Below, in pieces: positions 14 through 46,738 of a DNA stretch of 64,000 bases. The notes under the pieces were generated by a model that was given only the letters and a program-made list of their open reading frames with translations, searched no databases and was not told the DNA's origin. The first letter of the stretch is position 1. Each line of letters begins with the position of its first letter. Both the position numbers and the translations under genes were made by a program. The DNA lies in NCBI GenBank assembly GCA_964523705.1, contig CAZFYA010000001.1:3388-67387 (forward strand). Reading direction: 5' to 3'. This DNA comes from an uncultured Gammaproteobacteria bacterium (GTDB taxonomy: Bacteria > Patescibacteriota > Microgenomatia > Levybacterales > UBA12049).

Positions 14-202
14 TTGATTAAACCATGTAAAAAAGATGAGCCAATATATATTGATATGATTGATAGTCCTTACGCATATAATGAAACATTAAAAAATAGT
101 ATCTATCAAAGGGGCATTGATGAAATTAATTTAACAAAACCTAAAACAATAAATAAAAAAACTAAAACTAAAAGGAAATCGCGCTCTAGAAAAAAACATT
201 AG
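14..202 (+). CDS. Small basic hypothetical protein (TTG start, Lys/Arg-rich tail); possibly spurious
   Basis: 62-aa ORF with a non-ATG start and low-complexity K/R tail; its 3' end overlaps the convergent rfbG-like gene; no recognisable motif. Confidence 0.15.
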
Positions 203-1169
203 CTTTTTTGTACCAACTAATAATTTCCATAAAGGATTTTTTCAAATTATAATTATTTTTCCAGCCTAATTTTTTAATCTTTAAATCGTTTAGGTGCTGA
301 TATGGAATTTCATTTTTTGCTATATTTAAAATCTTATATTTAATTTTTTTACCAATAACTTTTTCTACAGTTTTAATAAGCTCTAATACTGATAATTTAT
401 CTTTAGAAGAAAAATTAAAAGCATTTCCTCTTGTTTTTTCAAATTTCTTAAGTAAAAAAACATATCCACTTACAACATCTTTAACATACAAATAGTCTCT
501 AACATATTTTCCATTGCTTCTTATTTTTAATGTTCTATTTTTTACAACTGCCTCACAGATACCAGGAATAATCCTATTTAGATATAAATCTCCCTCTCCA
601 TAAACGTTTCCAAATCGGGTGATTACAATTGGTAAATTATATGTTTTAATATATGTCTGACAAATTAAATCCATACAAGACTTAGAAACATCATACGGAT
701 GATCTCCCTTAAGGGGAGACTCTTCCGTATATTTTTTAATTGTTTTTCCATATGCTTTATCGGAGGACGCGGCAATCATTCCTTTTATTTTTTTATTTTT
801 TCTTAAAATCTCAAGTAAATTTATTGTTCCGTTAATGTTTGTTTCAAAAGCACTAACAGGATTATCGTATGCTTTTTCAACAATTGGCTCTGCTGCTAAG
901 TGAAAAATGTAATCAGGTGTATATTTTTTAAAGAAATTTTGAAGTTTTTTATTATCTCTTATGTCTATTAATCTTAGGTCTACCTTTTTTTTAAGCTTAT
1001 TTAATGCAAATATTGATTTAGGCTTAATTTTTATATCTATTACCGTAACTTTTGCTCCTAAACCTACTAACTCTTCTACTAAATGACCTCCTATAAACCC
1101 TGCTCCTCCAGTTACCAAAATCTTCTTGTCTTTTATTTCCATATTTTCCATTTTGGATCTTCTTTCCAA
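186..1169 (-). CDS. rfbG: NAD-dependent sugar nucleotide 4,6-dehydratase, CDP-glucose 4,6-dehydratase-like
   Basis: N-terminal Rossmann motif [12 protein letters not shown]; SDKAYG and [10 protein letters not shown] (YxxxK catalytic motif) resemble CDP-glucose 4,6-dehydratases; overlaps the rfbF stop, consistent with a ddhA-ddhB operon. Confidence 0.6.
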
Positions 1170-1909
1170 AGCTTATTTAAAGTATCCATATCGTTGTATG
1201 TATCCATGCAATACCAGAAATCATCATGTGTATAAACGGAAAGTTGTCCTTTTTTAGCCAATCTTTTTAATGCGTCATGTTCATACTCACCCGGATTAAA
1301 ATACTTAAAGGCCTCTCTTTTAAAAACCATAAATCCTCCATTTATTCTTTCTTTTAAAACCGGTTTTTCCATAAAACTTTCTACCCTTGATTTATTATTT
1401 ATTTTTAAAAGACCGTATTTACTTCTTGGGTGTACGCCTGCAACGGTTCCTATTGTTTTTTGTTTTTTATGAAAATTAATTAAATCTTTAATATTAATAT
1501 TTGATACGCCATCCCCATAAGTAACCATAAAGTGCTTATCTTCTTTTGGAATATATTTTTTAAGCTTTAATATTCTTTCGCCAGGAAGGGTATCCTCACC
1601 AGTATCAACAAATGTAATTTTAAAATGATCTGTTTTAGATTTGTCTTTTTTATGAAATTTTGTAAAGCCAGACCTTGTATGAAGAGTGAAATCATGAATA
1701 ATCTGATTTTGATTTAAAAAATACTGCTTTACATAATCACCCTTATACCCAAGCGCAATGATAAAATCATTAAAACCATAATGGGTATAAATCTTCATTA
1801 TGTGCCAGAGAATTGGTTTTCCACCTATATTAACCATTGGCTTTGGTTTAAATTCCGTTTCTTCTTTTAATCTATATCCAATACCTCCAGATAGAATTAT
1901 TGTTTTCAT
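1133..1909 (-). CDS. rfbF: Glucose-1-phosphate cytidylyltransferase
   Basis: Strong match to the RfbF/DdhA N-terminus: MKTIILSGGIGYRLKEETEFKPKPMVNIGGKPILWHIMKIYTHYGFNDFII; size 258 aa. Confidence 0.85.
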   Translation of the reverse strand: MKTIILSGGIGYRLKEETEFKPKPMVNIGGKPILWHIMKIYTHYGFNDFIIALGYKGDYVKQYFLNQNQIIHDFTLHTRSGFTKFHKKDKSKTDHFKITFVDTGEDTLPGERILKLKKYIPKEDKHFMVTYGDGVSNINIKDLINFHKKQKTIGTVAGVHPRSKYGLLKINNKSRVESFMEKPVLKERINGGFMVFKREAFKYFNPGEYEHDALKRLAKKGQLSVYTHDDFWYCMDTYNDMDTLNKLWKEDPKWKIWK

Positions 1910-1965
1910 AAAGTCCTTGCGTGTTTACAAAGATGTTTATATAATAATTAACAAAATAAATCAAC

Positions 1966-3180
1966 ATGGATTGTAAAAACGCGAAAATTAGAATCCCCTA
2001 TGCTTTATCTGTTTACGATGAAAAAGAGATAAAACGAGTAGAAAAAGTACTAAGAGAACACCGGTCCAATATGGGGATTGAAACCCAGGAATTTGAGAAA
2101 AATGTTGCTAAGTATTTTTGTAAAAAATATGGCATTATGGTAAACTCCGGCTCTTCTGCAAATCTTTTAGCACTAGAATTACTAAACTTACCAAAAGGAT
2201 CTGAAATAATAACCCCTATTCTTACTTTTTCAACAACCATCTCTCCGATGATTAAAAAAGGACTTGTCCCAGTTTTTATTGACGTTGAAGAAGGAAAATA
2301 TATAGTTAACGTAGATCAAATTGAAAAGCTGATTACAAAAAAAACTAAAGCCTTAATGATTCCTCTTCTTTTTGGAAATGTACCAGATATGGAAAAATTA
2401 GCAAAAATTGCTAAAAAGCATAATCTTTTCTTTATCGAAGATTCTTGCGACACTCTTGGCGCAAAATATAAGAATAAACCCACAGGAAAATATTCAGATA
2501 TCACAACCACGAGTTTTTTTGGATCGCATATTATTACAGCCGGAGGGAATGGAGGAATGATTATGGTAAATAATCCAAAATGGAGAGATAGACTTAAAGT
2601 ACTTCGCGGTTGGGGAAGAAGCTCTTCTATCTTTAGTGAATCTGAGGATATATCAAAAAGATTTAAAGCTAAACTTGGAAAAATTCCCTACGATGCAAAA
2701 TTTCTTTTTGATGAAATCGGATATAATTTTCTCCCTTGTGAAATTGGTTCAGCCTTCGGCAACGAACAGTTAATAAAATTGCCAAAATTCAGAAAAACAA
2801 GAGAAAAAAATTTCAAAAGATTATGTAATTTCTTTAAGAAATATAATAATTTTTTTATAATCCCCCAGCAGGACAAGTTAGTAAAAACACAATGGCTTGC
2901 GTTTCCTTTAACGATTAAAAAAAATGCTCCTTTTTCAAGAATAGAGATAACGACATATCTTGAAAAAAATAATACGCAAACAAGACCGGTTTTTACAGGA
3001 AACATTTTAAAGCACCCAGGTTTTAAAAAAATACCAAGAAGATTAAACCCTAAAGGATACCCTGTCGCTGATGAAATTACAAAACAAAGTTTTGTAATAG
3101 GCTGCCATCACGGAATGAAAGAAAAACACCTTAATGCACTTGAAAATCTTTTTGATAAATTTTTAGCGAAATATAACTAG
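1966..3180 (+). CDS. rfbH: DegT/DnrJ/EryC1 family PLP/PMP enzyme, likely CDP-6-deoxy-4-keto-glucose 3-dehydrase (E1)
   Basis: DegT-family fold (MVNSGSSANLLALE; SFFGSHIITAGGNGG). His occupies the position of the usual Schiff-base Lys (SFFGSH rather than SFHxxK), as recalled for E1 dehydrases (recollection, not alignment). Divergently adjacent to rfbF/rfbG. Confidence 0.55.
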   Translation: MDCKNAKIRIPYALSVYDEKEIKRVEKVLREHRSNMGIETQEFEKNVAKYFCKKYGIMVNSGSSANLLALELLNLPKGSEIITPILTFSTTISPMIKKGLVPVFIDVEEGKYIVNVDQIEKLITKKTKALMIPLLFGNVPDMEKLAKIAKKHNLFFIEDSCDTLGAKYKNKPTGKYSDITTTSFFGSHIITAGGNGGMIMVNNPKWRDRLKVLRGWGRSSSIFSESEDISKRFKAKLGKIPYDAKFLFDEIGYNFLPCEIGSAFGNEQLIKLPKFRKTREKNFKRLCNFFKKYNNFFIIPQQDKLVKTQWLAFPLTIKKNAPFSRIEITTYLEKNNTQTRPVFTGNILKHPGFKKIPRRLNPKGYPVADEITKQSFVIGCHHGMKEKHLNALENLFDKFLAKYN

Positions 3181-3920
3181 TTTTTTTTATTAAAAACTGC
3201 ATTTCCAAGCCTATATCTTACAAAAATATTTATCGTATCTATAAACATCCAAAATGCTACGTTTATAAAATTAAAATAATTTATAGAGCTTTTTTTTAAA
3301 TTTACATTAATCGGCGCTTCAAAAATTTTTACATATCCTAATTTTTTAGCAATAACTAAAGACTCTATATCGAATGCAAAACCGTTAATTGTAATCTTAG
3401 AAAAGATTTTTTTAGCTATCTCTTTTTTAAATAATTTAAAACCAGCTTGAGTATCCTTAATTTTTAAATCAAATAGCATTTGAATAATAAATCTGTATCC
3501 TTTTGATAAAACTTTTCTAAAAAACGGGTATTTTATTCTAGATTTTGGATGAACTTTACTCCCAACTACGATATCTGCATTGTTCTTATTCATAACAGAC
3601 AACATCGTTGAAATTTCTTTTGGATTTAAATCCATTCCCGCATCCATAAAGCCGACTATTTCTTTACTTGCCTTTTCAACTCCGTATTTAATAGCATACC
3701 CTTTGCCTTTATTTTTTTTATATCCAAAAAGTTTAAAATCAGCTGTTTTTATTTTTTGTGCTTCTTTAAAAGTATTATCATTAAATCCGTCTACCACAAC
3801 AATTATTTCAAAATCAGATGATATCTTTTTTAATGCATTTTTTATTTCTTTAACCTGCTTAATAATTGTTTTTTCTTCTTTATAAGCAGGCACTATAAGG
3901 GAGATTGATTTTGAAGTCAT
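3177..3920 (-). CDS. GT2 polyprenyl-phosphate sugar synthase (Dpm1/GtrB/ArnC-like), soluble type
   Basis: SLIVPAYKEEKTI...VVVDGFNDNT...MDAGMDLNP (DxD)...DTQAGFKLF, typical of dolichyl/undecaprenyl-phosphate glycosyltransferases; 247 aa with no C-terminal TM. Confidence 0.7.
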   Translation of the reverse strand: MTSKSISLIVPAYKEEKTIIKQVKEIKNALKKISSDFEIIVVVDGFNDNTFKEAQKIKTADFKLFGYKKNKGKGYAIKYGVEKASKEIVGFMDAGMDLNPKEISTMLSVMNKNNADIVVGSKVHPKSRIKYPFFRKVLSKGYRFIIQMLFDLKIKDTQAGFKLFKKEIAKKIFSKITINGFAFDIESLVIAKKLGYVKIFEAPINVNLKKSSINYFNFINVAFWMFIDTINIFVRYRLGNAVFNKKN

Positions 3921-3923
3921 AAA

Positions 3924-4475
3924 CTAATCATTATCAGCTAATGCCTTTCTGACTAAATCCCATGAAAATGGTGTTCCGTCAGAAAGTTTTACACCAACTT
4001 CACTAAAAGGTTTTCTTCCTTCTTCTTTAGGATTATACAGGGCTGTTGGAAAATTAAATAGAATTGCCGGTTCCTTTGAGCTAACTAAAAATGCATGATA
4101 TGTATTTTTTGGAATTAATAATAAATATGGATCCTCCAGTGCATTTATTCTAAAAAGATTAACTACATCTTTTGTCTCAGAATTTTCTCTCTTATCTGCG
4201 ATCGCAATTATTACCTCTCCCTGAATTACACCCATTCTGTCTTCCTGAACTGTTGGGTGAAAATGCCAAACATCTTCATCTCTTGCCATGCCTGGTGGGG
4301 TAACTGAATAATACTGCATTGCAAATTCTCTTCCTTTACCGTAAATATCAGGCCAATTGGTTTTTAAAGTCTCAACAAGTACTCCTGAATCATCCTTATT
4401 TACTTTAAGAGGATACATTATTACGTCTTTTATTATTTTTTTTGAGTCTTTATTTTTTAAAGTAATAAATTCCAT
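3924..4475 (-). CDS. RmlC-like cupin sugar-nucleotide 3,5-epimerase
   Basis: 183-aa cupin with WHFHP...QGEVIIAIAD core; sits inside the NDP-sugar module; specificity (dTDP versus CDP substrate) cannot be resolved. Confidence 0.5.
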   Translation of the reverse strand: MEFITLKNKDSKKIIKDVIMYPLKVNKDDSGVLVETLKTNWPDIYGKGREFAMQYYSVTPPGMARDEDVWHFHPTVQEDRMGVIQGEVIIAIADKRENSETKDVVNLFRINALEDPYLLLIPKNTYHAFLVSSKEPAILFNFPTALYNPKEEGRKPFSEVGVKLSDGTPFSWDLVRKALADND

Positions 4476-4518: not shown

Positions 4519-5838
4519 CTAAAACCTGGAATTACTTGGGGATGCCAAATAATTTTTAATAATTTTAATACTTATATATTCCTTGGCAAAAGTAATTAAT
4601 AAGTAAAAAAGCAATAATAAAGACACTAAAAGTGATACTCCAATTACCTGAAAGAAACTGTTGTGGAAAATATATATTAATGCCACCTGAGCAATAGTTG
4701 TTGCAATTACCGGAATATATACCTTTGTTTTTCCAATTGATAGAAAAAAATTAACACAAACATTAAGGATGCTAAATATTGTCATAAATACTGCAAAAAA
4801 CCCAAGATATGGAACGATACTTAAATAATTTTTGCCTAAAAATATATTAATACTAAGCTCCGGCAGCAAGTAATAAAAAGCGGTTATTAAAACCGAAGGT
4901 AAAGTTACTAAAAATATTGCCAAATAAAAAAGACTAGCTATGTTTTCTCCCTTTTCCTTTCTTTTTACAACCAAAGGAAACATTACTAATGGAATTGAAT
5001 TAGTAAAATAAAAAATTACTCTTCCAATTAATGATAAACCTCCGTAAAGACCTGCCTGGACTGGATTAAAAAAATGCTTTACCAAAATTACATCCATTGT
5101 CATTAATGAAGTAAGTGAAAGTATAGAAAGACAAGCCGGTAAAGCATAAACAACTACTTCCTTTGTTTTAATACTTATTTTTTTATTGTCTTTTATTTTA
5201 AGCAAAGATTTAACGGGAATAAGATAAAGTATAAAAAAGATAATACCGGCAAGTATAATTGCCGTTAGTGCACCGAACACCCTAAAACCCAAAAACACTA
5301 ATACTACTCCGGAAATAAGCCTTACGAAAGCACTGCTAATTAAAGTTATTGCTACAAATGAAAACTTTAATAATCCCTGGGTAAAAGCTCCGCTTGGTAT
5401 ATAAATATAATAAACTACTATAGCAACTCCTGTTAAAACTATATACCAAACATTATCTATTCTTAAAAACTCTTTAATCGGAACAGAAAAAATTAAAAAA
5501 ATAATAAAAAATGCTAATGAAAATATTGCTACAGACTTAAGAGTCTTTTTAAGAAACTTAGAAGCCATTTCTATTTTATTTTGAGAAAAATAACCTGTGG
5601 CAAACTTAACAATAACAGTTGAAATTGATTGAGCCGGAGTTACAGCAATGAGTGTAAAAAGAGAAAGTAAGCTTGCATAAATACCGTAATCCGAAGTTGT
5701 TAAGTTTCTTGCAAAAAAAAGATTTAATATAAAAGCTAAAAAAGCAGAAAAAACAGAGCCTAAAAACATAAAAAAACTGCCTGTAATCAGTTCATGTTTT
5801 AAAAATCTTTTACTAAAATAGGAAATCTTACCTTTCAT
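4519..5838 (-). CDS. Wzx-like oligosaccharide flippase (MOP superfamily polysaccharide biosynthesis protein)
   Basis: 439 aa, about 12-14 predicted TM helices, N-terminal pattern typical of PF01943/PF13440 flippases. Confidence 0.65.
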   Translation of the reverse strand: MKGKISYFSKRFLKHELITGSFFMFLGSVFSAFLAFILNLFFARNLTTSDYGIYASLLSLFTLIAVTPAQSISTVIVKFATGYFSQNKIEMASKFLKKTLKSVAIFSLAFFIIFLIFSVPIKEFLRIDNVWYIVLTGVAIVVYYIYIPSGAFTQGLLKFSFVAITLISSAFVRLISGVVLVFLGFRVFGALTAIILAGIIFFILYLIPVKSLLKIKDNKKISIKTKEVVVYALPACLSILSLTSLMTMDVILVKHFFNPVQAGLYGGLSLIGRVIFYFTNSIPLVMFPLVVKRKEKGENIASLFYLAIFLVTLPSVLITAFYYLLPELSINIFLGKNYLSIVPYLGFFAVFMTIFSILNVCVNFFLSIGKTKVYIPVIATTIAQVALIYIFHNSFFQVIGVSLLVSLLLLFYLLITFAKEYISIKIIKNYLASPSNSRF

Positions 5839-6883
5839 TTAAAACCCTCTTGTACACTTCTACTGTTTCATTAGCAGTTTTTTGCCAGGAGAATTTTTTC
5901 GCTTGCTCTTTTCCTTTTTCTTTTAATTCAACTTGCAGTTTTTCACTATTAAAAACCTTTTTTATTCCGCTTACAATATCATCTTCGCTATATGCGTTAA
6001 CAAAAAACGCCCCGTCTCCTGCGACCTCTTCTAAAGATCCCTCCTTTGATGTAATTACAGGAAGCTCACTTGCCATCGCTTCTAAAACAGGAAGACCAAA
6101 TCCCTCATAAAGAGAAGGCATGGTAAATACTGTTGCCATCTTATAAATTTGAGTTAATTCTTCAGAAGATATAAAACCAAGGCTTGTAATATTTTTATTT
6201 TCTTTTATCAATTCTTGTACTTTAACTAAATCCTTGTTCCAGGGATTTTTTCTATCGTAATCAATTGAGGTTATTGCTTTACCTATCATAACCAAAGGGA
6301 GATTTATCTTTTTAATTGCTCTTAAAAGTCTTGGAAGATTTTTATTCCAGGTTACATCTCCAACATAGAGTGCAAATTTTCCAGGAAGCTTGTGTCTTTC
6401 TCTAATTTCTTTTATTAATTTTTCATTTCTTTTTGAATTAATAAAATTTTCCGCTGCTGCTAAATAAACAACATTTACTTTATACTGATTAACTTTTATA
6501 TGTTTAACAATGTCTTTTTTCGAAGAGTTAGAATCAGTAATAATCGCTTCTGTTTTTAAAAGTGCTGTTTTTTGCATCTGCCACTTAAACCAACCCTTAA
6601 CTCCCTTTGGAAACTGTTTTGGAAAAACAATAGGGGTTAAATCATGAACCGTTACCACCGTTTTGAATCTTTTATATATTGGTCTTGCTAAAAAAAATGG
6701 TTCAAAATATGGAAAATGAACAATATCTACATCAGCTGAAAGTGTCTCTCCCCTATTAAAAAAAACATAAGTATGCTGAGGATAATATTTTACCAGGGCT
6801 TCTTTTAAATTATTTAAATAAAAACCAACTCCTCTAACTCTATGACCTGTATGAAGTGGTGATATATCTATTGCAATTTTCAT
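5828..6883 (-). CDS. GT4 (GT-B fold) glycosyltransferase
   Basis: C-terminal EGFGLPVLEAMASELPVITS motif, the EX7E-type signature of GT4 retaining transferases. Confidence 0.8.
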   Translation of the reverse strand: MKIAIDISPLHTGHRVRGVGFYLNNLKEALVKYYPQHTYVFFNRGETLSADVDIVHFPYFEPFFLARPIYKRFKTVVTVHDLTPIVFPKQFPKGVKGWFKWQMQKTALLKTEAIITDSNSSKKDIVKHIKVNQYKVNVVYLAAAENFINSKRNEKLIKEIRERHKLPGKFALYVGDVTWNKNLPRLLRAIKKINLPLVMIGKAITSIDYDRKNPWNKDLVKVQELIKENKNITSLGFISSEELTQIYKMATVFTMPSLYEGFGLPVLEAMASELPVITSKEGSLEEVAGDGAFFVNAYSEDDIVSGIKKVFNSEKLQVELKEKGKEQAKKFSWQKTANETVEVYKRVLNER

Positions 6884-10263: not shown

Positions 10264-10264
10264 C

Positions 10265-13062: not shown

Positions 13063-13065
13063 GTT

Positions 13066-29995: not shown

Positions 29996-30024
29996 GTTTC
30001 TATTTTAGCAAGTTTATAATGCTA

Positions 30025-30054
30025 TTGCATTTACAAGAAGAGTAATAATATAAT
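30025..30054 (+). promoter_or_regulatory. Sigma70-like promoter (TTGCAT-N18-TATAAT) feeding a near-leaderless transcript for the 30061 gene
   Basis: TATAAT at 30049-30054 lies 6 nt before the ATG at 30061; no SD possible. Confidence 0.5.
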
Positions 30055-30060
30055 TAAGAT

Positions 30061-38857: not shown

Positions 38858-39295
38858 TTAAGCAGAAGGTTGAAGGTTATTTTTTAAAAAATTTAAAAAA
38901 TGATTAGCTTGACCTATTGCATCTCTTGTATTTGTATAAACTCTGTCTTTTCTCCTACCATCATCATTTACATATGACCATTTGATTAAAGGCTCATCAG
39001 GGGATAAGACAACTTTTGAAGTATCATCATCTCCTCTAAGCTCAACTGAGATGCTTTTTCTTGGATCATATTTTACAATTACACCATGCTCGCTGCTTAA
39101 TCTAAATTCAACTAATCTAGTTTTATCCTCAGAATTAGCAGTAATTTCTTGATCGCTAAGAAGTGCTAATGCACTTGCTCTTTGAAACGCAGGAGATTTC
39201 ATTAATACTACTTTATAATTACTGTACAAGCCGTAAGCTTCTCTTGAAAGCTCTTCTTTTGGAAGTGACCTTTCAGCCATTTGTATTTCTGACAT
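38858..39295 (-). CDS. Hypothetical soluble protein (145 aa) embedded between family C paralogs
   Basis: No TM or recognisable motifs; has its own promoter (TTGACT-N18-TAAAAT) ending a few nt before the ATG. Confidence 0.5.
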   Translation of the reverse strand: MSEIQMAERSLPKEELSREAYGLYSNYKVVLMKSPAFQRASALALLSDQEITANSEDKTRLVEFRLSSEHGVIVKYDPRKSISVELRGDDDTSKVVLSPDEPLIKWSYVNDDGRRKDRVYTNTRDAIGQANHFLNFLKNNLQPSA

Positions 39296-39304
39296 AATCA
39301 GTAT

Positions 39305-39334
39305 ATTTTATGAAAAATTTAACCTAAAAGTCAA
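39305..39334 (-). promoter_or_regulatory. Sigma70-like promoter TTGACT-N18-TAAAAT for 38858..39295, near-leaderless; -35 embedded in the shared TCCCATAGTTGACTT element
   Basis: Minus strand reads AGTTGACTTTTAGGTTAAATTTTTCATAAAATATACTGATTATG. Confidence 0.5.
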
Positions 39335-40860
39335 CTATGGGACTTTTTGTATCTTAACTTAAATGCTAAGAATATTAATCCCAAAAATGAAACAAAAGAA
39401 ATGATATTTACTGTAAGTCTTAAATTTGTTTCTTTAAAATAAGCTTTAACAAAATGATTTCCCTTATTTAAATTAAATTGAATTAATCCAGAATCATTTT
39501 TATAACTAATCAAGACATTTTTATTATCAACTTCTAAAACCCATCCAGGATAATAGATTGTATTAATTGAGAGTAATGAATCTTTTTGTAAATCAGCATT
39601 AAAACTAACGCTATTTCCATTATTTATTAAATTAAAAACACTGCCTTCTCCTTTTAATATTTCTACCTTTTCATTTTTTGAAGAACTTGGGATTTCTTTT
39701 ACCCATTTTGGCATATATTCATTTTTAACAGTTGTTGTGTCTTGGTTTGTTGAATAAAAAGTATCTGGATAGTTTGTAAAACCTTTAGGATAGATAAAAT
39801 CTTTAGCATCAAAAATTAATAAAAATAAATAAATAATTATTAAAATTTTTTTATTTCTTCCCTTTAGGAAATTTAGCTGAAATGCTACAAAAAATGCTGT
39901 TGTTAAAATTAAAACTGAAATTAATCTAAATGGAAATTGAATAAAACTTGAAAACAAAGGCCATAAGAATGAGGAGATTGGAAAAATTAAAAAAAGACAA
40001 ACTACAGAAACTATAAAAAATAACCAATAATTTTTATCTTTTATTCTTCTAAAGATTAAAAAAGTTAACAAGAAAGAAAGTAAAAACACTAAACCAATCA
40101 GGTTTATATTCTGTAAATTTACAAAATACTCTGAAAAGTCGGATACCAAAACCTTATCAAAAATTACAAATCTTTTCTCTATAAGCGCCGGCAACCAGAA
40201 AAAACTGGACATTCCAAGGCCAAAAACTAAGCTGAATAATATTTTTTTAATATCTTTTTTTGAAAGGTAATAATAAATAAGAATTATCGGTAAAAACAGC
40301 AAAGCCAAGCTGTTATGAGAAAGAATAAGAAGTGCTATACCAATTGATATAAAAAATAGACTTTGTCTTTCTATTTGCCATAAGATAAACGGAACAATAG
40401 CCAATGCCAAGACCTCACCAACTGATCCTCTTTTATAAACATCCCATAAATGATATGGAAAATATAAATAAACCAATGAACCGATAAGGGATGATAAGTT
40501 ATCAAACTTTTTTCTAAGCCAAAGAAGTGAAAAAACAGCAGAAGATAATAGACTTATTCCAAAAATTATTTTTATCGTACTGACAAAACTAAAACCTAAT
40601 ATATGAATAGGTGTACCGATATACATAAATAACGGATATAAAAAGTTGGCAACCGGATAACCAAAACCGTTATTAAGTCTTGCTAAAAACCTTACCGGAA
40701 ATTGACCGTTTCTTAAGGCTTCATAAAATGCTGAAAATCGAATAATCATCCAGTTCCCATCATCAGTTACAAAAAATCCAGGCTTTAAAAGAGCGAAAAC
40801 TGAAGGAATGGATAAAATTAAAACAATAATTAAATATTTCAAAAGTTTCTTATTTTTCAT
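39331..40860 (-). CDS. Polytopic membrane protein, YfhO-related GT-C-like (family C)
   Basis: 509 aa. FFVTDDGNWMIIRFSAFYEALRNGQFPVRFLARLNNGFGYPVANFLYPL; C-terminal IYYPGWVLEVDNKNVLISY. Confidence 0.5.
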   Translation of the reverse strand: MKNKKLLKYLIIVLILSIPSVFALLKPGFFVTDDGNWMIIRFSAFYEALRNGQFPVRFLARLNNGFGYPVANFLYPLFMYIGTPIHILGFSFVSTIKIIFGISLLSSAVFSLLWLRKKFDNLSSLIGSLVYLYFPYHLWDVYKRGSVGEVLALAIVPFILWQIERQSLFFISIGIALLILSHNSLALLFLPIILIYYYLSKKDIKKILFSLVFGLGMSSFFWLPALIEKRFVIFDKVLVSDFSEYFVNLQNINLIGLVFLLSFLLTFLIFRRIKDKNYWLFFIVSVVCLFLIFPISSFLWPLFSSFIQFPFRLISVLILTTAFFVAFQLNFLKGRNKKILIIIYLFLLIFDAKDFIYPKGFTNYPDTFYSTNQDTTTVKNEYMPKWVKEIPSSSKNEKVEILKGEGSVFNLINNGNSVSFNADLQKDSLLSINTIYYPGWVLEVDNKNVLISYKNDSGLIQFNLNKGNHFVKAYFKETNLRLTVNIISFVSFLGLIFLAFKLRYKKSHS

Positions 40861-43222
40861 AAATTTTTTTAAAAGACAAAAGATAAATTAGAAAAAGTAT
40901 TAGCGCAACAAGTGATACTTTAATTCCAACGTCAAATGAGTAAGGATAATAATTCATTACCAGTTTATGTTCTCCTTTTAGAATAGGTACTGCTCTAAAG
41001 CTATAATTTGCCTTATATATTTTTACTTCTTTCCCATCAATAAAAGCTCTCCATCCTGGAAAATAGTTATCAGAAATAAAAAATAAGGCATTTTCATCTG
41101 TTGTTATTTCAAATTCAACCCTATTTGGCTCATATACTAAAAGTTTTATATTGCTATCAGTTATTTCTCCAAGTTTAATGTTTGGTTTTTCTTCTAAAAT
41201 TAAGGTTTTTCTTAAATCAATATTCTCATCATAAATTTTTGCTATTCTTTTTTCTTTTTCTTTTACAACTTTAAAGTCGCTTGCAAGATAAAATCTATCA
41301 AACACATTTTTATTCTCGTAAATCTGCCAAGGTTTTTTTTGCCAAACTAGCTCATATGACTTTTGAGGAAACGTAATGTAATCAGGTTCTATTTTTTCTG
41401 TTAATAAATCGTTTTTATGTAAAACATACTTTATTCCAAGTAAATTAATAAGTCTTTGCCGATAATTATTTGTTTTTAAATCCGTATCACCGTAACCTGG
41501 TGCAATGTTTGCATCAGGCCTTGGCAAAACTTCTGGTAATTCTCCATATTTTGATGCTGCCAGTAATTCTCCGTAGGATGAGATATGCAAGGGATCGTTT
41601 CCTTCAGGAGAAAAGGTCTTATCAACGCTTTGAAAGTTGGGTGGGATATAACCTGAACCATATCCCCAAAATCTACTTATATTTGCATTTTCCTTTAAGA
41701 AGCTTACAACTTCTGTTTTAGGATAAGTAAAGCTGCTTGGTGAAAAAGGAGTTATTTTATTAAAGAAATAAAAGAAATCAAAAACAAGAATAATAGTTAT
41801 TAAAACTAAACTTACTTTTTTTAATCTATTTTTAAGATAAAAAATGACAACAGTTGCAAAAACTAAAGCTGTTGGCAAAATCATGTTTCTTATTGCAACT
41901 TTAAAATTAATATCTGTTAAGAAACCAAGTTTATAAATTATAAAAACAATTGGAAAAATTAAAATTAAAAGAAGAAAAAAGAAAATTGGATATTTTGTTT
42001 TATTTTTATTCTCCATCCAGTAATTTATTCCCATTGCTCCTAGAACTATTACTGAAAAAATAAAAATACTAAGCTCCCTGGTTGGAATTGTTGTTGAGAT
42101 AACCGGAATAGGAAGTAAATAAAAATATTTAACAAGCGGAATATTTGTTGCAATTATTAAAGATACTGCTGCCAGAATAGCAAAAAACTTTTTATTAATA
42201 TCCTTTACTTTAAAAATGGCAAAAATTGCAAAAAATAAGATAATTACTCCCGGATACATTACTCTTTCAATATATGTCCCATCAAGATAGTAGTTTCTGC
42301 TTGCCGGATTTCCAAAAAAATCAGGAAAAACTACAGTTATCCAGTAATAAATTGGGGCTAGACTTTTTGAGAATTGAGCTAATGAGTAAGAACCCCTGGT
42401 TGAGTTTCTAAATATTTCAAGTGTTGGAAGTAGCTGAAATAAAGATAAAATTATTGGAAAAATTAAAGCACTTAAAAAAACAATGCCTTTTTTAATTTTA
42501 TTTTTAATCTTTTTTGAAAACAATAAAAAGAGAAAATATAAAACACAAACTGTATAAACATAGAAAAATCCCTGAATATAACCTGCCAGAAAACTTAAAG
42601 TAAAAACAATTACTAATAATAGAAAATCCTTAAGGCTTATTTTTTCAACTATTCTTTTTATTAAAAGCAAAGCTAAAGGAAGATAGGAAATAGTTGATGC
42701 GATATTTCCATACTGAATCCAAACCACCATATACGATGAAAAAGCAAAAGCTATCCCGCCTAAAACAGAAGCAAGTTTTTTAAGTCCTATTCCTCTATTT
42801 AGAAGCAGGAACATAAATACTGCTGCCAAAAGAGGCTGAAGCATTATAAAAATAGCAAAGGAGATATTAAACGGAAAAACAAAAAAGATTAAATTAAGAG
42901 GGTAAAATACAGCTGTTTGAAAATTAGCCATTTGCACATTTCCTGAAAAGTTATAAGGATTCCAAAAAGGAATATTACCATTTTTTAATTCTTCAATTGA
43001 AAAATATTTCCAAGGATAAATTTCTGTGATAACATCTGCTCCTTGAGCTTTATTAGGATAGCTTCCCGGTAAATATCCTAAAAAAGATTCAGAAGAATAA
43101 GGATTTGTATTTATTAATAAGTCTCCTGGAAATGGAATATATCCTTTAAAAATAGGGTTGAAAAAAAATAAAACAATAAAAAGAATTAATAAAAACGGAT
43201 AAAATTTTTTAAAAAATTTCAT
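40850..43222 (-). CDS. YfhO-family GT-C membrane glycosyltransferase (family D)
   Basis: 790 aa. EIYPWKYFSIEELKNGNIPFWNPYNFSGNVQMANFQTAVFYPLN; C-terminal YFPGWRAFIDGKEVKIY...FRAVPILKGEHKLVM. Confidence 0.7.
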   Translation of the reverse strand: MKFFKKFYPFLLILFIVLFFFNPIFKGYIPFPGDLLINTNPYSSESFLGYLPGSYPNKAQGADVITEIYPWKYFSIEELKNGNIPFWNPYNFSGNVQMANFQTAVFYPLNLIFFVFPFNISFAIFIMLQPLLAAVFMFLLLNRGIGLKKLASVLGGIAFAFSSYMVVWIQYGNIASTISYLPLALLLIKRIVEKISLKDFLLLVIVFTLSFLAGYIQGFFYVYTVCVLYFLFLLFSKKIKNKIKKGIVFLSALIFPIILSLFQLLPTLEIFRNSTRGSYSLAQFSKSLAPIYYWITVVFPDFFGNPASRNYYLDGTYIERVMYPGVIILFFAIFAIFKVKDINKKFFAILAAVSLIIATNIPLVKYFYLLPIPVISTTIPTRELSIFIFSVIVLGAMGINYWMENKNKTKYPIFFFLLLILIFPIVFIIYKLGFLTDINFKVAIRNMILPTALVFATVVIFYLKNRLKKVSLVLITIILVFDFFYFFNKITPFSPSSFTYPKTEVVSFLKENANISRFWGYGSGYIPPNFQSVDKTFSPEGNDPLHISSYGELLAASKYGELPEVLPRPDANIAPGYGDTDLKTNNYRQRLINLLGIKYVLHKNDLLTEKIEPDYITFPQKSYELVWQKKPWQIYENKNVFDRFYLASDFKVVKEKEKRIAKIYDENIDLRKTLILEEKPNIKLGEITDSNIKLLVYEPNRVEFEITTDENALFFISDNYFPGWRAFIDGKEVKIYKANYSFRAVPILKGEHKLVMNYYPYSFDVGIKVSLVALILFLIYLLSFKKIYEK

Positions 43223-44754
43223 TAATCTTTGGGCGGAATAACTTTATAAACTCTATATAAATAATCACTGTTCCCCATTTTTACTTGAAAAACCAGCTCA
43301 AGTGGATAATCTTTGGAAATTACCTGATTGTTTGGCTGATAAAAAACAAAAAAAGTTGGCATTTTTTCCGAGTATTCAATTACTTCTTTGGGAAGCTGGT
43401 GTTCAACAGGCCAATACCCTTTAATTGTTATATTTTTGTTATCTATTAAATAAAGCTCCAAAGATAAAGGCATTAATCCAAAAGTTCCCTCGGTTGCTAT
43501 AAAAATCTTTTTGTCTTCCCCCTCTTTTTTAAAGAATTCAATACTTTCCTTAACTCCCCATCCGGCTGACCAGCTATTAATATATTGCCTGCTGTCACTT
43601 TTAGCTATTGGGGCATTAACAGGGTCTTTGGCAATTGAAAAAGAGACAAAAGCGGGATAAGAAATAAAAATAACTGCTACTATTACATAAACTAAGGCTA
43701 CTTTCTTTTTTATCTTTAATTTTTTATTTACAAACTGAATCACTTCATTTAAAGACCAGGCAGCAAGAGGAAGCAAGAATACGCTCATGAAAAAGATAAA
43801 TCTTGGAAAGATTACCTTTCCAAAAAGAGCAAGGGCTAAAAACGGTAATAAAAAGTAAATTATTAAAAGTATTTTTTCTTTTGTAAATTTATAAATAAAA
43901 ATTAAAGAAAGAATAATTAGCAAGATATAAGGAATTGTTAAATAACTAAGTAGCCAATCAAAAAGACCATATAAGTTGCCGATGAAAAAAGTAAAAGGAT
44001 GATTTATCCACTCGGAAAACGGATAAACAAAAGTTGCATTTTTGGTTTGAATCATTTGAAAAAGAGGAGAAAGACGAAGCATGTTATAAATAACCTGAGC
44101 AATAATTACAGAAAGCAAAGCAAAGAAAACCCACTTAAAAAATCTTTTTAAGAAATCTTTTTTTGAAAAGTTAAAAAGAAGAATGGTAAACGGTAAAAGA
44201 TAAAGACTGAAAAAATTACTGCTTTTAGTCAATGCTCCAAGTCCGGCAGTAATTCCCAAGGTATACATCACGCTTAATTTTGTTTTTCTTACTAAAAGAA
44301 TAGAAAAATATAAAGCAAGAATAGAAAATGTAGCAACCATGCTATCCATTAAGGCCATTCGATCATTTATTTGGGCAAACGGATAAAAAACATAAAGAAA
44401 TGAAGTTAAATAAGCAATTTTTCTGTTTTTAAACAACTCAAGCGATAAAAAGAAAAGCCCAATTAGTGTTAAAAATCCAGTTAATACAGAAACCAGTCTT
44501 GCTGCAATTAAAGGATCTTTAATAAATTTCATAAAAACCATTGCTACCCAAACAAAAAGAGGCTGTTTACCATCAGTTAATGAAATAAAACGCCAATTTG
44601 CATCATTTAAGGCAATTTGTGCCCACCTGGTATAAATTGCTTCATCTGTAAAAATAGGCATTGAGGAAAAATAGATTAAGCGAAGGAAAAAATAGGAAGC
44701 CACTAATAATAAAATTGTTATGATTTCCAAAAGGTTTTTTTTAATAAAGGGCAT
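43222..44754 (-). CDS. PMT/ArnT-family GT-C glycosyltransferase (family A, ArnT-like)
   Basis: 510 aa. SSMPIFTDEAIYTRWAQIAL DE-motif loop followed by many TM helices. Confidence 0.6.
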   Translation of the reverse strand: MPFIKKNLLEIITILLLVASYFFLRLIYFSSMPIFTDEAIYTRWAQIALNDANWRFISLTDGKQPLFVWVAMVFMKFIKDPLIAARLVSVLTGFLTLIGLFFLSLELFKNRKIAYLTSFLYVFYPFAQINDRMALMDSMVATFSILALYFSILLVRKTKLSVMYTLGITAGLGALTKSSNFFSLYLLPFTILLFNFSKKDFLKRFFKWVFFALLSVIIAQVIYNMLRLSPLFQMIQTKNATFVYPFSEWINHPFTFFIGNLYGLFDWLLSYLTIPYILLIILSLIFIYKFTKEKILLIIYFLLPFLALALFGKVIFPRFIFFMSVFLLPLAAWSLNEVIQFVNKKLKIKKKVALVYVIVAVIFISYPAFVSFSIAKDPVNAPIAKSDSRQYINSWSAGWGVKESIEFFKKEGEDKKIFIATEGTFGLMPLSLELYLIDNKNITIKGYWPVEHQLPKEVIEYSEKMPTFFVFYQPNNQVISKDYPLELVFQVKMGNSDYLYRVYKVIPPKD

Positions 44755-44799
44755 ATGGCTAAATTATACAAGAACAAAAGAATTGTTGGCAAATAGATT

Positions 44800-45972
44800 T
44801 TATTTACTAAATCTTTTAAATGGAAAAATAAAGGAGAACAAAAGAAAAACTAAAGGAGTAATAATAGTTACGTAAAGTTTTATTGGAATAACTATTCCGC
44901 TCCAGTCCCCTTGATATAAAAATGGAGCATATCTTAGCAAAAGCCCCAATGTTAAACCAAGAATAAAAAATAATAAATGCCTCTTTAGTTTTATTAACGC
45001 TAAAAAGGGCATAACCCATAAAAAATACCAAGGCTGTACTTCAATTTTGGTTAATACAAAAACAAAACCCAGAATTGAAAATAAGACGCAAAGTTTTAAA
45101 AAGGTATCACTGCTGATTTTTATTTTCTTAACATAATTTGCTAAGAAATATAAAAGTATCGGAATAGCTAAAACTATCATTACTTCTTTTGTAAGATAAG
45201 AAAAAACAATAAATAAAATACTTAAAATCCACCTCTTTTTTAAGGCATAAAAAACGGAACACAGGGCAAAAAACATCATTGCGATGTCATTATGTCCTGA
45301 TACCAAACATTCAATTAAAATCAAGGGGTTAAGTGCAAAAAAAGCTAAATTAAAATTTAAATTCTTACTGTCAATTGTTTGTAAAATCTTTTTAATAACA
45401 AAACAGGAACCAAGGTACAAAACAGCTGCTAAGGCTTTAAAAAGAATAAGAGTTGGTAAGAAAAAATTTAAACCGATAAACGATAAAGGAATAGTTAATA
45501 CTAACCAAATTGGGCCATACGGATAAACTCTATGCGTCCAATGCATAAATGAAAGCATCGGATCACCTGGAAAATCTAAAGGCTTAAAAAGATAGGGGTT
45601 TTGACCGTAATGGGTAAAAATCTTGGCATCAAAAACATAATTAAATAAATCGTAAGAAAACGCATTGTATGACAAAAGTAAAATTCCAGCTGATAAAAAA
45701 ATAAGCTTTGTAATTTGTTTTAAGCTAATTTTATTTTTATGCGTTTTATACAAAGTATAAAAATATAATCCAAATAATAAAACTAATATTGCTAAAAATA
45801 AATAAGTTGATAAAGGCCGATTAAAATAACCAACGTACTGAAAGCTCTTTTGAATTCCCTGCCAGATAGATACTTTTGATAAGGTTAAGCTTAAATCAAC
45901 TTGGGTAAAAGAATATAAAAAAAGACTAAAAAGTATTACCGCGTATCCTATAAATAATCCTTTAAATTTCAT
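44800..45972 (-). CDS. Polytopic membrane protein, possible GT-C (DUF2029/GT87-like) or polymerase-like
   Basis: 390 aa, about 10-12 TM; conserved-looking MHWTHRVYPYGPIWL loop; family assignment uncertain. Confidence 0.35.
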   Translation of the reverse strand: MKFKGLFIGYAVILFSLFLYSFTQVDLSLTLSKVSIWQGIQKSFQYVGYFNRPLSTYLFLAILVLLFGLYFYTLYKTHKNKISLKQITKLIFLSAGILLLSYNAFSYDLFNYVFDAKIFTHYGQNPYLFKPLDFPGDPMLSFMHWTHRVYPYGPIWLVLTIPLSFIGLNFFLPTLILFKALAAVLYLGSCFVIKKILQTIDSKNLNFNLAFFALNPLILIECLVSGHNDIAMMFFALCSVFYALKKRWILSILFIVFSYLTKEVMIVLAIPILLYFLANYVKKIKISSDTFLKLCVLFSILGFVFVLTKIEVQPWYFLWVMPFLALIKLKRHLLFFILGLTLGLLLRYAPFLYQGDWSGIVIPIKLYVTIITPLVFLLFSFIFPFKRFSK

Positions 45973-45982
45973 TATTGAGGTT

Positions 45983-46738
45983 TTAATTATATTTTCCTTT
46001 AATAATATTATTTCTTATCTTTATTAAATCCAAAAAACCATTTATTGAATCATTAACAGGACTTACTCTTCTTGTTTCAACATAAAGCCACTTAACAGGA
46101 ACTTCCTTAATCTTGTAATTTCTTTTTTGGGCAAGATACAAAAGCTCCACGTCAAAACCGGCTGTTACAGATGAGCCTGAAATATGCTTAAAACCATTGT
46201 GAATTTTTTTAATTTTCTCAAAAAGATCCTCGGTTGCTTTTTTGTTAAATATTTTAAAACCGCATTGAGTATCACTAATTCCTATAACGCCAACTATTAC
46301 TGTTCTAAGTAAAATCATTCCTTTTGCCATTACTGCTCTTGTAAAAGGAGCTCCTTTTCGCTGAGAATTTCTGCTGCCGATAACAATATCATAACCTTCT
46401 TTTAAAAAAGGTAAAAGTTTATCAACTTCTTCAATTGGAGTAGCCTGATCCATGTCAGTAAACAACCTATATTCTCCTTTTGCTTCAAGCATTCCGGTTG
46501 TTACAGCTCCTGCTTTTCCCATGTGTGAATTTTTAATTAACCTGAATTTTTTGTTAGTTTTAACAAAATTTTCAATAAATTCAATACTTTCATCATCTGA
46601 TCCATCATCAACAATTACCACTTCATATTCAAATTTTTCCTTATTTAAAAAACTCTCTATTTTATCCAATACTCCTTTTTGAAGATTTGCCATTTCGTTA
46701 TAACATGGGATTACAACTGAGAGGTAAATTTTGCTCAT
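45983..46738 (-). CDS. GT2 polyprenyl-phosphate sugar synthase (Dpm1/GtrB-like), soluble type
   Basis: IYLSVVIPCYNEMANL...VVIVDDGSDDES...GKAGAVTTGMLEAKGEYRLFTDMDQATP...DTQCGFKIF; first gene of the minus-strand cluster. Confidence 0.75.
   Translation of the reverse strand: MSKIYLSVVIPCYNEMANLQKGVLDKIESFLNKEKFEYEVVIVDDGSDDESIEFIENFVKTNKKFRLIKNSHMGKAGAVTTGMLEAKGEYRLFTDMDQATPIEEVDKLLPFLKEGYDIVIGSRNSQRKGAPFTRAVMAKGMILLRTVIVGVIGISDTQCGFKIFNKKATEDLFEKIKKIHNGFKHISGSSVTAGFDVELLYLAQKRNYKIKEVPVKWLYVETRRVSPVNDSINGFLDLIKIRNNIIKGKYN

Follow-up and report, generated by a model that had tools for sequence, protein, structure and literature searches.

A block of nearly gap-free genes, 46.5 kb long (positions 186-46738), occupies most of the 64-kb window analysed here, by which we mean the whole stretch of 64,000 nucleotides from contig CAZFYA010000001.1. 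It carries 17 candidate GT-C membrane glycosyltransferases together with four candidate polyprenyl-phosphate sugar synthases and two flippases. We think it likely that this chromosomal block serves as an envelope-glycan locus conserved within its lineage, encoding a greatly expanded version of a transmembrane glycosylation system with multiple components. Gene content, family and fold assignments and synteny carry this reading. The block points to an unusually elaborate, strain-variable sugar coat on the outer face of the membrane. The organism belongs to the Levyibacteriota, in keeping with the reduced-genome, patescibacterial setting presumed in an earlier note on this DNA.

The open reading frame (ORF) listing of the window gave 38 genes in the block: 37 ORFs of at least 100 aa (g01 to g37, Table 1) and a 78-aa DUF5652 gene. 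Thirty-six of the 38 lie on the minus strand, the two exceptions being g03 (1966-3180) and the DUF5652 gene. The earlier note had described a co-directional run of 39 minus-strand genes out of 40; the run stands and the counts do not. The tight packing that it had remarked on was also found, with overlaps or gaps of ≤5 nt at 28 of 37 junctions. Coding sequence makes up ~99.7% of the block, and the 17 GT-C genes alone account for 61% of its length. The limits of the run are truly 186 and 46738, because a tRNA-Glu(CTC) follows on the right and a plus-strand ORF, converging on g01 and running off the window end, stands on the left.

A hydropathy scan found 19 polytopic proteins, comprising two MOP/Wzx flippases (g06 and g29) and 17 GT-C candidates. 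The latter are all intact, are 390-790 aa long and have 8-14 predicted transmembrane (TM) segments. On the basis of BLASTP, alignments and Pfam, family A (PMT_2/PMT) comprises g13, g14, g15, g16 and g19 with g35 as an outlier, and family C (PTPS_related) comprises g10, g31 and g33. Family B, called 'YDxxRD', was drawn from BLASTP and alignment and comprises g12, g17, g20 and, loosely, g11. The YfhO family (g23, g25 and g34) has full-length matches of 88-115 bits against a gathering score of 28.5, and g36 is a GT87-like singleton. The earlier note had called 17 such proteins in four families and a singleton, four Dpm1-like GT2 enzymes and two flippases from the letters alone; the TM scan, Pfam, BLASTP and profile searches recovered all of them, and the 6/4/3/3/1 division was reproduced exactly. 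Its statement that families B and C have no characterised homolog holds in that no close one was found, but they are not orphans, lying in or next to PMT_2 and PTPS_related.

Pfam families of the GT-C clan (PMT_2, PMT, PTPS_related and YfhO) match 15 of the 17 proteins, 12 of them at or above the gathering score. PTPS_related, PMT, PMT_2 and GT87 are all members of clan CL0111 (PMC7801869). Within family B, PMT_2 exceeds its gathering score for g11 and g17, is very weak for g20 and gives no match for g12. The gathering score of PMT, 22.7 bits, is exceeded by g14 (43.7), g35 (38) and g19 (24.3). In profile-profile alignment with hhalign, families A and B were linked with a probability of 99% across 287 columns, which brings in g12 and g20; family C was joined to family A at 97.5%, and YfhO to family C at 97.2% over 304 columns. 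Altogether, sequence links join 16 of the 17 proteins. Many g12 orthologs have a precomputed PMT_2 match, and orthologs of this gene are named GT39 or ArnT-like. By contrast with these links, hhalign gave g36 just 7.5% with family A, 1% with family B and 50% with family C, so that it appears to have no reliable sequence link to the other 16. Its weak NCBIfam matches are to MptA and MptB, and it does not exceed the threshold of the curated GT87/MptA-MptB-PimE family profile hidden Markov model (HMM). In searches of the PDB, the family A profile matched ArnT (5ezm) at 9.5e-6, its only sequence-level match; nothing at E ≤1 came up for the family B, C or YfhO profile or for g36 alone. A regular-expression search of the 17 proteins found no WWDxG-like motif and Pfam found no MIR or PMT_4TMC domain (E ≤0.01), which makes them neither canonical oligosaccharyltransferases nor canonical PMTs.

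All 17 proteins share the same start, TM1 followed by a first loop of 36-101 residues. A short Lys-rich N-terminus precedes TM1 in 14 of them; in g13, g35 and g36, Kyte-Doolittle prediction has the protein begin directly with TM1 and leaves no charged N-terminus. By the positive-inside rule, loop 1 would be extracytoplasmic. An acidic extracytoplasmic loop had been set out in advance in the earlier note as a test of the GT-C assignment, and an acidic loop 1 is present in 17 of 17, with an Asp/Glu that the alignments show to be invariant in every family. In family A this is an invariant DE (D39-E40). In family B it is the Asp of YDxxRD, and FAFTYDVGRD is invariant across 26 g12 orthologs. Family C has (H/D)D(G/-)..R, with D34 and R41, and YfhO has D59. 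The acidic motif of g36 is QVD plus FSYD (D26, D108, H227/D229).

We also compared AlphaFold2 models of two proteins with the PDB using Foldseek. For g10 (pLDDT 86, pTM 0.89, 43-sequence alignment), the top 32 matches were all GT-C, with STT3 the best at 1.3e-5; its matches are STT3, AglB, PglB, ArnT, AftD, Pmt4, AftA, ALG3, Pmt1, PIG-M, EmbB, ALG9, PimE and ALG12. For g36 (pLDDT 89, pTM 0.90, 42 sequences) the matches were weak, though GT-C, and as modelled g36 is a predicted GT-C of the ALG3/PIG-M/PimE structural class. Both models are helix-rich, in agreement with the TM counts. At its C-terminus the g10 model has a small beta-sandwich (about 435-513) and then a terminal TM helix. BLASTP identified a C-terminal module of ~100 aa (g10 residues about 423-545) common to g10, g23, g25, g33 and g34, which in the model takes the form of this sandwich and helix; it might serve to bind the acceptor, or carbohydrate, on the extracytoplasmic side.

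Could the polytopic proteins instead be transporters or other membrane proteins, with family matches that are artefacts of hydrophobic composition? The absence of a Pfam match for g12, the weak or sub-threshold scores of g16 (25.9 bits), g20 (17.6) and g36 (20.6), and the failure of the family B, C, YfhO and g36 profiles to match anything in the PDB by sequence are what such artefacts would produce. However, composition would not account for the high-probability profile-profile links between families, for acidic and Arg motifs that dozens of orthologs carry unchanged in the same loop, or for structural matches of g10 and g36 that are exclusively GT-C, with no transporter among the top matches. 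The genes are also tightly linked to those for sugar-activating and GT2 enzymes. The earlier note had recognised that HMM or structure searches could assign these proteins to non-glycosyltransferase families; they did not, with 15 of 17 in the Pfam GT-C clan and the g10 matches in the PDB all GT-C. We regard this explanation as largely refuted and scarcely credible.

The candidate donor synthases g04, g21, g30 and g37 are GT2 proteins of 237-251 aa with 29-33% mutual identity. Their profile matched Pyrococcus dolichyl-phosphate mannose synthase (DPMS; 5mlz) over its full length at 4.7e-36, GtrB at 1.5e-29 and ArnC at 1e-24 to 1e-25; the best NCBIfam matches were PpgS, PgfS, AglJ and ArnC, all sub-cutoff. 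The co-location of four DPMS/GtrB/ArnC-like GT2 enzymes indirectly supports, at the level of sequence similarity, the use of polyprenyl-phosphate-linked sugar donors by the GT-C proteins. Beyond these four there are seven further GT2/GT4 enzymes (GT4: g07 and g24; GT2: g09, g22, g26, g27 and g28). Among the sugar-activating enzymes, g01, g02 and g03 score just under RfbG-, RfbF- and RfbH-type equivalog cutoffs, respectively, and g08 scores above that of GalE.

Evidence that GT2 and GT-C enzymes act together comes from gene fusions in related loci (cited here by L numbers). Seven of 46 orthologous ORFs code for a ~770-aa protein in which a g09-type GT2 and a family-B GT-C domain share one reading frame (L001:17092-19398, and also in L003, L006, L007, L008, L020 and L022). 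Identity to g09 is 67-86% for the GT2 part, and identity to g17 and g20 is 31-34% for the GT-C part. The window's own g09 ends after its two TM helices. These fusions constitute Rosetta-stone evidence for the joint action of the two enzyme types. The GT2 family to which g09 belongs, with g26 and g28, has GmaR (1.7e-25) and SunS as its best solved relatives in profile searches of the PDB. GmaR is a flagellin glycosyltransferase and SunS a peptide S-glycosyltransferase; neither is a polysaccharide GT2.

The soluble enzymes and flippases would also suit a conventional Wzx/Wzy heteropolysaccharide locus, capsule- or O-antigen-like, in which many of the polytopic proteins would polymerise or ligate diphosphate-linked oligosaccharides rather than transfer monophosphate-linked sugars. 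RfbF/G/H-like enzymes, GalE, two Wzx proteins and seven extra GT2/GT4 enzymes are all present, g11 has a weak match to the Wzy-like EpsG (21.7 bits, gathering score 30.1), and structurally g10 is best matched by oligosaccharyltransferases that use diphosphate-linked donors (STT3, AglB and PglB). Yet the block has no match to Wzy_C/O-antigen ligase, Wzz/PCP or an initiating phosphoglycosyltransferase, WWDxG occurs in none of the 17 proteins, and all families tested belong to the GT-C clan or fold and have the loop-1 acidic motif. Furthermore, the four DPMS/GtrB/ArnC-like enzymes imply single-sugar donors linked through a monophosphate. We therefore judge a conventional Wzx/Wzy locus to be very unlikely. 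The earlier note had stated that this does not look like an O-antigen locus. Part of the block resembles a classical Wzx-type polysaccharide module (RfbF/G/H-like, GalE, Wzx, GT2 and GT4), and the statement is only partly fair.

An expanded multi-component transmembrane glycosylation system could work as follows. In the cytoplasm, the RfbF/G/H-like enzymes, the cupin and GalE would supply a CDP-deoxyhexose branch and UDP-Gal. The GT2/GT4 Leloir enzymes would probably build a lipid-linked primer or repeat unit, and the four Dpm1/GtrB/ArnC-type GT2 enzymes would put single sugars on polyprenyl phosphate. The two MOP/Wzx flippases, possibly with other proteins, would bring the lipid-linked sugars to the outer leaflet, where the 17 GT-C enzymes, each with its own specificity, would transfer sugars to an extracytoplasmic acceptor. 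The g18 methyltransferase may modify the product. In this scheme the donor and acceptor chemistry, the pairing of flippases with lipids, the order of action and any 'combinatorial' use of the enzymes are inferred only.

The closest precedents are the Gram-positive multi-component systems CsbB/GtcA/YfhO, GtlA/GtcA/GtlB and GacI-GacJ/GacK/GacL (PMC8035078). In systems of this kind a GT-A enzyme, a flippase (GtrA- or Wzx-type) and a GT-C enzyme decorate lipoteichoic acid, wall teichoic acid and wall polysaccharides; known genomes have about 1-3 GT-A/GT-C pairs, with three each in Bacillus subtilis and Lactococcus lactis (PMC8035078). The block has the same parts: a polyprenyl-phosphate-sugar GT-A/GT2, a flippase (of the Wzx type, an accepted variant) and YfhO/PMT_2 GT-C enzymes with an acidic extracellular-loop motif. 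It differs in scale, with 17 GT-C and four donor GT2 enzymes in one block and at least nine GT-C enzymes in a second block, and in its donor:transferase ratio, which is about 1:4 rather than 1:1. It also differs in that neither a GtrA-type flippase nor a GacJ-like partner was found in the block.

Mycobacteria and corynebacteria assemble arabinogalactan (AG), lipomannan and lipoarabinomannan (LAM) using EmbA/B/C, AftA-D, MptA/B/C and PimE, fed by few donors (Ppm1, PpgS and decaprenylphosphoryl-arabinose). There, as proposed here, many GT-C enzymes share few lipid-monophosphate donors to make a branched polymer outside the membrane. The likeness extends to individual proteins: g36 resembles MptA, MptB and PimE; g10 matches AftD and AftA structurally; and g04 and g37 resemble PpgS, likewise a short TM-less GT2. 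However, the similarity is remote (structural alignments give ≤20% identity), the genes of mycobacteria are scattered over >4 Mb rather than packed in an operon-like block in a candidate phyla radiation (CPR) genome of ~1 Mb (judging from relatives), and no arabinose or decaprenyl pathway genes were seen here. An independent expansion is more likely than a pathway ancestry shared with mycobacteria. By analogy, the ~1:4 ratio of donor synthases to transferases and the MptA/PimE- and AftD/AftA-like similarities make a wall-associated glycopolymer or lipoglycan, built and branched stepwise outside the membrane, our first choice of acceptor. Surface proteins (S-layer or pili) would be the second.

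The second choice corresponds to a different overall function, namely O-glycosylation of secreted or surface proteins (S-layer, pilins or adhesins) after export, by family A and the YfhO/PgfM-like enzymes, on the model of actinobacterial Pmt and the Streptococcus mutans Pgf system (PgfS, PgfM1, PgfM2 and PgfE). Loop 1 of family A has the PMT-type DE motif, as in eukaryotic and actinobacterial PMT/GT39 enzymes; g14, g19 and g35 are above the Pfam PMT gathering score; and orthologs carry the NCBI name GT39. Unlike PMT/GT39 enzymes, no member has a detectable MIR or PMT_4TMC domain, the C-terminal halves are unrelated and there are six paralogs rather than one. The sole sequence-level match of family A in the PDB, ArnT, is a lipid glycosyltransferase. 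As in Pgf, GT2, epimerase and YfhO-like GT-C genes are co-located, and GalE adjoins GT2 and GT-C genes as pgfE does. The best NCBIfam matches of g25 and g34 are PgfM2 and PgfM1, respectively, and these are the only NCBIfam matches of the YfhO paralogs; those of the donor enzymes g04 and g37 include PgfS. The Pgf matches are, however, far below cutoff (40-54 bits against 1400-1500), and Pgf consists of four genes that modify defined adhesins. Protein glycosylation would also fit GmaR and SunS as the nearest solved relatives of g09, g26 and g28. Against it, 17 transferases are far more than in any known protein O-glycosylation system, and the block encodes no candidate acceptor protein, with no adhesin evident. 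On balance we consider protein O-glycosylation as the main function rather unlikely.

A further comparison can be made with the Arn pathway, which modifies lipid A: g03 (DegT), g04 and g30 (resembling ArnC along almost all of its catalytic domain) and family A (ArnT) mirror ArnB, ArnC and ArnT. In contrast to that pathway, there are no equivalents of ArnA, ArnD, ArnE or ArnF here, and g03 is closer to RfbH than to ArnB. To our knowledge, lipid A is not an expected acceptor in the patescibacterial envelope.

The synteny comparison suggested in the earlier note supported a lineage-conserved locus. A scan for g12 orthologs in species-representative genomes returned 73 loci, mostly from Levybacteria, with some from Curtissbacteria, Gottesmanbacteria and Microgenomates. 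By counts with HMMs built on the families of the window, the 21 kb around the g12 ortholog contain 5-12 GT-C ORFs in most Levybacteria loci and fewer in the more distant groups. Dense GT-C arrays around this gene recur in about 60 related species-level genomes, and such recurrence means that the clustering is not chance. In L001 (67% identity) and L002 (52% identity, 863-kb contig) the g12 neighbourhoods are syntenic, in the order GT2, GT2, PMT_2/PMT, methyltransferase, PMT_2..., g12-like, (YfhO), PTPS_related, GT2, epimerase. The position of the g18 methyltransferase is kept in L001, L002 and L043. Some orthologs bear the names 'glycosyltransferase family 39 protein', 'YfhO family protein', 'DUF2029' or '6-pyruvoyl-tetrahydropterin synthase-related', and those of g10, g12 and g36 come from metagenome-assembled genomes (MAGs) of Candidatus Levybacteria/Levyibacteriota. 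Many public MAG records with Levybacteria-type clusters are titled 'uncultured Gammaproteobacteria bacterium' (L003, L009, L014, L016, L018, L020, L021 and others); to judge by gene content and similarity, these titles are evidently a placeholder or mislabel. An edge gene of 697 aa at L002:1-649 has precomputed matches to PMT_2 (weak) and PBP_dimer, and may be a real combination of GT-C-like and penicillin-binding-protein parts or may be spurious.

Within the window, paralogs are only 25-42% identical by BLASTP. Nevertheless, a separate ortholog of each of g09-g15, g21 and g22 occurs in 27-71 loci, with median identities of 44-64% (for g14, 54 loci and a median of 62%). Since the paralogs are distant from one another yet have orthologs of their own, the duplications must be old and every copy kept, which favours distinct specificities over redundancy. 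There are few clear orthologs of g16, g17, g19 and g20, and these four genes look more accessory.

A second cluster, L043, lies at positions 30379-51821 of a 252,136-bp contig, DAIQMY010000002.1, from Ca. Levyibacteriota isolate CTOTU2445. It has nine GT-C ORFs in 21 kb and no nucleotide overlap with the window. Its genes are g22-like, g21-like, a 673-aa ORF, four of family A, three of family B, a methyltransferase, and g09-, g08-, g36-, g10- and g07-like; they are collinear with the window cluster at 29-59% protein identity. A cluster orthologous to L043 itself occurs in another species (L044, 70-95% identity). L043 probably belongs to the same genome as the window, which would then have at least 26 GT-C genes. 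Pfam searches of the odd ORFs in related clusters gave no clue to the acceptor: there was no match for the 673-aa ORF of L043 or for a 505-aa ORF of L001, and a 169-aa ORF of L043 matched DUF5667.

Variation between close relatives is most apparent in L009. Its nucleotide identity to the window is 90-91% over 13981-17910 and 9556-10191, and its g10, g13, g14 and g15 proteins are 87-96% identical to those of the window. Between these regions, where L009:3933-8888 corresponds to 10191-13981 of the window, the g12 and g11 counterparts are just 54% and 52% identical, an extra (third) family-B GT-C gene is inserted, and the counterpart of g13 is shortened as well as split. Recombination seems to have replaced a g11-g12 cassette, as occurs in surface-polysaccharide loci; the predicted breakpoints are in the 3' portion of g13 and at the 5' end of g10.

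The cluster might accordingly be, rather than one fixed pathway, a reservoir of alternative specificity cassettes, exchanged or differently used by strains to vary the surface glycan for escape from phage or host recognition. Besides L009, such a reservoir would explain why GT-C copy number per 21 kb ranges from 4 to 12 among Levybacteria and why g16, g17, g19 and g20 have few clear orthologs. The GC content is also suggestive. It is 0.27-0.32 by region across the block and 0.31-0.35 to its right, and the cluster mean of 0.290 is below both that of the adjacent housekeeping region (46739-64000, 0.331) and that of L043 (0.339). Low GC could reflect lateral acquisition from a lower-GC Levybacteria lineage, but membrane-protein composition could also explain it. 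The closest relatives of the cluster are likewise low in GC (L009 0.277, L001 0.287). Set against a reservoir is the individual retention of the core genes g09-g15, g21 and g22 in 27-71 species. The block has no invertible elements, no homopolymer tract of ≥10 nt and, by Pfam, no integrase or mobile-element genes. The sole tract of ≥9 nt, an A9 on the coding strand at 21113-21121 (codons 5-8 of g17), is too short to make a case for slipped-strand phase variation. We think it unlikely that the cluster is primarily a reservoir, an explanation that is in any case compatible with an envelope-glycan locus rather than exclusive of it. Separately, we considered an integrative island and rejected it: there is no integrase, and the cluster lies 5' of tRNA-Glu, not at its 3' end.

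Several observations weigh against a functional multi-component glycan locus, whose case is wholly computational. Pfam scores for g16 (25.9 bits), g20 (17.6) and g36 (GT87, 20.6) fall below gathering scores, and none of the 17 GT-C proteins or the four donor GT2 enzymes reaches a curated NCBIfam equivalog cutoff. The GT-C fold of families B and YfhO is predicted through profile links. The donor enzymes do not have the membrane helices of GtrB, ArnC and DPMS, there being no TM segment in g04, g21 or g30 and one weak internal segment in g37. TM-less cytoplasmic GT-A variants are known, as in GacI, which works with GacJ (PMC8035078); Pfam found neither a GacJ-like partner membrane protein nor a GtrA-type flippase in the block. 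No initiating phosphoglycosyltransferase, Wzy, Wzz/chain-length regulator or LCP ligase was detected in the window, which means that the acceptor pathway is not visible there. Finally, the assignment of L043 to the genome of the window is indirect.

We found no description of GT-C arrays of this kind in CPR/Patescibacteria in the searchable literature, a coverage that leaves out most subscription journals, so that a prior description is possible. Reviews of the CPR and the Southlakia genetics paper are silent on machinery for glycosylation, and a Microgenomates genome paper gives only a count of 29 glycosyltransferase genes. As every protein falls in a known superfamily, nothing here is categorically new. 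What is unusual is the scale, the operon-like packing, conservation across a lineage of a reduced-genome phylum, the duplicated cluster and the exchange of cassettes at strain level. From relatives' contigs of 818-863 kb we estimate a genome of about 0.9 Mb, of which the clusters would take several percent.

Retention of each paralog across dozens of species argues for a complex, defined glycan, and the cassette swap between near-identical strains argues for diversifying pressure on it. A broader proposal, possible but offered tentatively and with the chances against it, is that Levybacteria build their principal envelope glycopolymer or lipoglycan almost wholly on the outer face of the membrane, through ~17-26 specialised GT-C enzymes and few polyprenyl-phosphate-sugar donors. 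Such a design would amount to the AG/LAM strategy of mycobacteria invented anew, independently and in far more compact form, with cassettes (g11-g12) exchanged between strains. If so, the density of GT-C genes would be the highest known, the CPR episymbiotic surface would depend centrally on this locus, and cassette exchange would re-tune that surface for attaching to hosts or evading phages. Patescibacteria are ultra-small bacteria thought to live attached to other cells; their surface chemistry is almost unexplored, and the locus provides candidate genes for host-recognition or phage-receptor structures. For glycobiology it is a compact natural library of divergent GT-C enzymes, including PTPS_related and YfhO proteins without a PDB match by sequence.

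Table 1. Features of the block and its right-hand border, with window positions. Scores are in bits; cutoff, NCBIfam equivalog cutoff.
Feature	Position	Strand	Assignment	Evidence and remarks
g01	186..1169	-	CDP-glucose 4,6-dehydratase-like (RfbG-like) short-chain dehydrogenase/reductase	Pfam Epimerase, GDP_Man_Dehyd; NCBIfam CDP_4_6_dhtase 215, cutoff 278
g02	1133..1909	-	Glucose-1-phosphate cytidylyltransferase-like (RfbF-like)	Pfam NTP_transferase; NCBIfam G1P_cyt_trans 273, full length, cutoff 300
g03	1966..3180	+	DegT/RfbH-like pyridoxal/pyridoxamine phosphate-dependent sugar aminotransferase or dehydrase	Pfam DegT_DnrJ_EryC1 260; RfbH 343, cutoff 423
g04	3177..3920	-	Dpm1/GtrB/ArnC-type GT2, no TM; candidate polyprenyl-phosphate sugar synthase	Pfam GT2; NCBIfam best PpgS, PgfS, ArnC, sub-cutoff
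g05	3924..4475	-	Cupin, dTDP-sugar isomerase/epimerase family	Pfam dTDP_sugar_isom 41
g06	4519..5838	-	MOP/Wzx-type flippase	11 predicted TM; Pfam Polysacc_synt_3, Polysacc_synt
g07	5828..6883	-	GT4 (GT-B fold) Leloir glycosyltransferase	Pfam Glycos_transf_1, Glyco_transf_4; NCBIfam weak
g08	6883..7857	-	UDP-glucose 4-epimerase GalE	NCBIfam galE 408, above cutoff 262
g09	7854..8624	-	GT2, two C-terminal TM helices	Pfam GT2; TM prediction
g10	8626..10263	-	GT-C family C (PTPS_related)	PF10131; HDG..R in first outer loop
g11	10265..11554	-	GT-C, PMT_2 type, loose family B	Motif YDQVDN; PMT_2 33, above gathering score
g12	11554..13062	-	GT-C family B	No own Pfam match
g13	13066..14733	-	GT-C family A (PMT_2)	DE motif after TM1
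g14	14714..16366	-	GT-C family A	PMT_2 51, PMT 43.7
g15	16363..18078	-	GT-C family A	PMT_2 56
g16	18057..19670	-	Divergent GT-C family A	PMT_2 25.9, gathering score 26.1; BLASTP to g14, g15 8e-39
g17	19654..21135	-	GT-C family B	PMT_2 29.9; 42% identity to g20
g18	21132..21731	-	S-adenosylmethionine-dependent methyltransferase among GT-C genes	Pfam Methyltransf_11
g19	21734..23434	-	GT-C family A	PMT_2; PMT 24.3
g20	23451..24953	-	GT-C family B	PMT_2 very weak (17.6); BLASTP to g17 5e-128
g21	24972..25688	-	Dpm1/AglJ-type GT2, no TM; candidate polyprenyl-phosphate sugar synthase	Pfam GT2 134; AglJ 125, sub-cutoff
g22	25689..26633	-	GT2	One predicted TM
g23	26637..28928	-	YfhO-family GT-C	Pfam YfhO 88
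g24	28925..29995	-	GT4	Pfam Glycos_transf_1
DUF5652 gene	30061..30297	+	78-aa protein, two TM	DUF5652 85
g25	30259..32580	-	YfhO-family GT-C	Pfam YfhO 115; weak NCBIfam PgfM2
g26	32580..33341	-	GT2 of g09 family	
g27	33338..34255	-	GT2, rhamnosyltransferase-like	
g28	34257..35165	-	GT2 of g09 family	One predicted TM
g29	35167..36621	-	MOP/Wzx flippase	Polysacc_synt_3 176; NCBIfam MOP flippase 146, sub-cutoff
g30	36608..37321	-	Dpm1/ArnC-type GT2, no TM	NCBIfam ArnC 80 over positions 2-216 of 316
g31	37322..38803	-	GT-C family C	PF10131 49
g32	38858..39295	-	145-aa protein	No family match, no TM
g33	39331..40860	-	GT-C family C (PTPS_related)	
g34	40850..43222	-	YfhO-family GT-C	YfhO 110; weak NCBIfam PgfM1
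g35	43222..44754	-	GT-C, family A outlier	PMT_2 48, PMT 38
g36	44800..45972	-	GT87/MptA-like GT-C	Predicted ALG3/PIG-M/PimE structural class
g37	45983..46738	-	Dpm1/PgfS-type GT2	First gene of minus-strand run
tRNA-Glu(CTC)	46789..46863	+	Right-hand border	Housekeeping genes beyond

The DUF5652 gene is probably not part of the glycosylation machinery. It is placed in the 264-nt gap between g24 and g25 (29995-30259) and has 39 nt in common with the 3' end of g25; being on the opposite strand, it divides the run into at least two transcription units. An Rfam scan of the window returned two tRNAs only. Beyond tRNA-Glu lie genes for Lon, a histidine phosphatase, tRNA-Gln, a DAGK-family kinase and glutamyl-tRNA synthetase, and further along the right flank those for a D-Ala-D-Ala carboxypeptidase, a class II aminoacyl-tRNA synthetase, RecJ, a CCA-adding enzyme, MetK, YqeY and SecF. 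A 180-aa ORF at 51856-52398 (minus strand) overlaps tRNA-Gln(CTG) (52316-52387) and is probably not a real gene. The kinase gene (DAGK_prokar family, 52429-52797, minus strand) overlaps the start of a gene for an unannotated 203-aa protein with five TM segments (52794-53405, minus strand). The DAGK_prokar family includes undecaprenol kinases, and this pair, 6 kb from the cluster, could have a role in supplying the lipid carrier.

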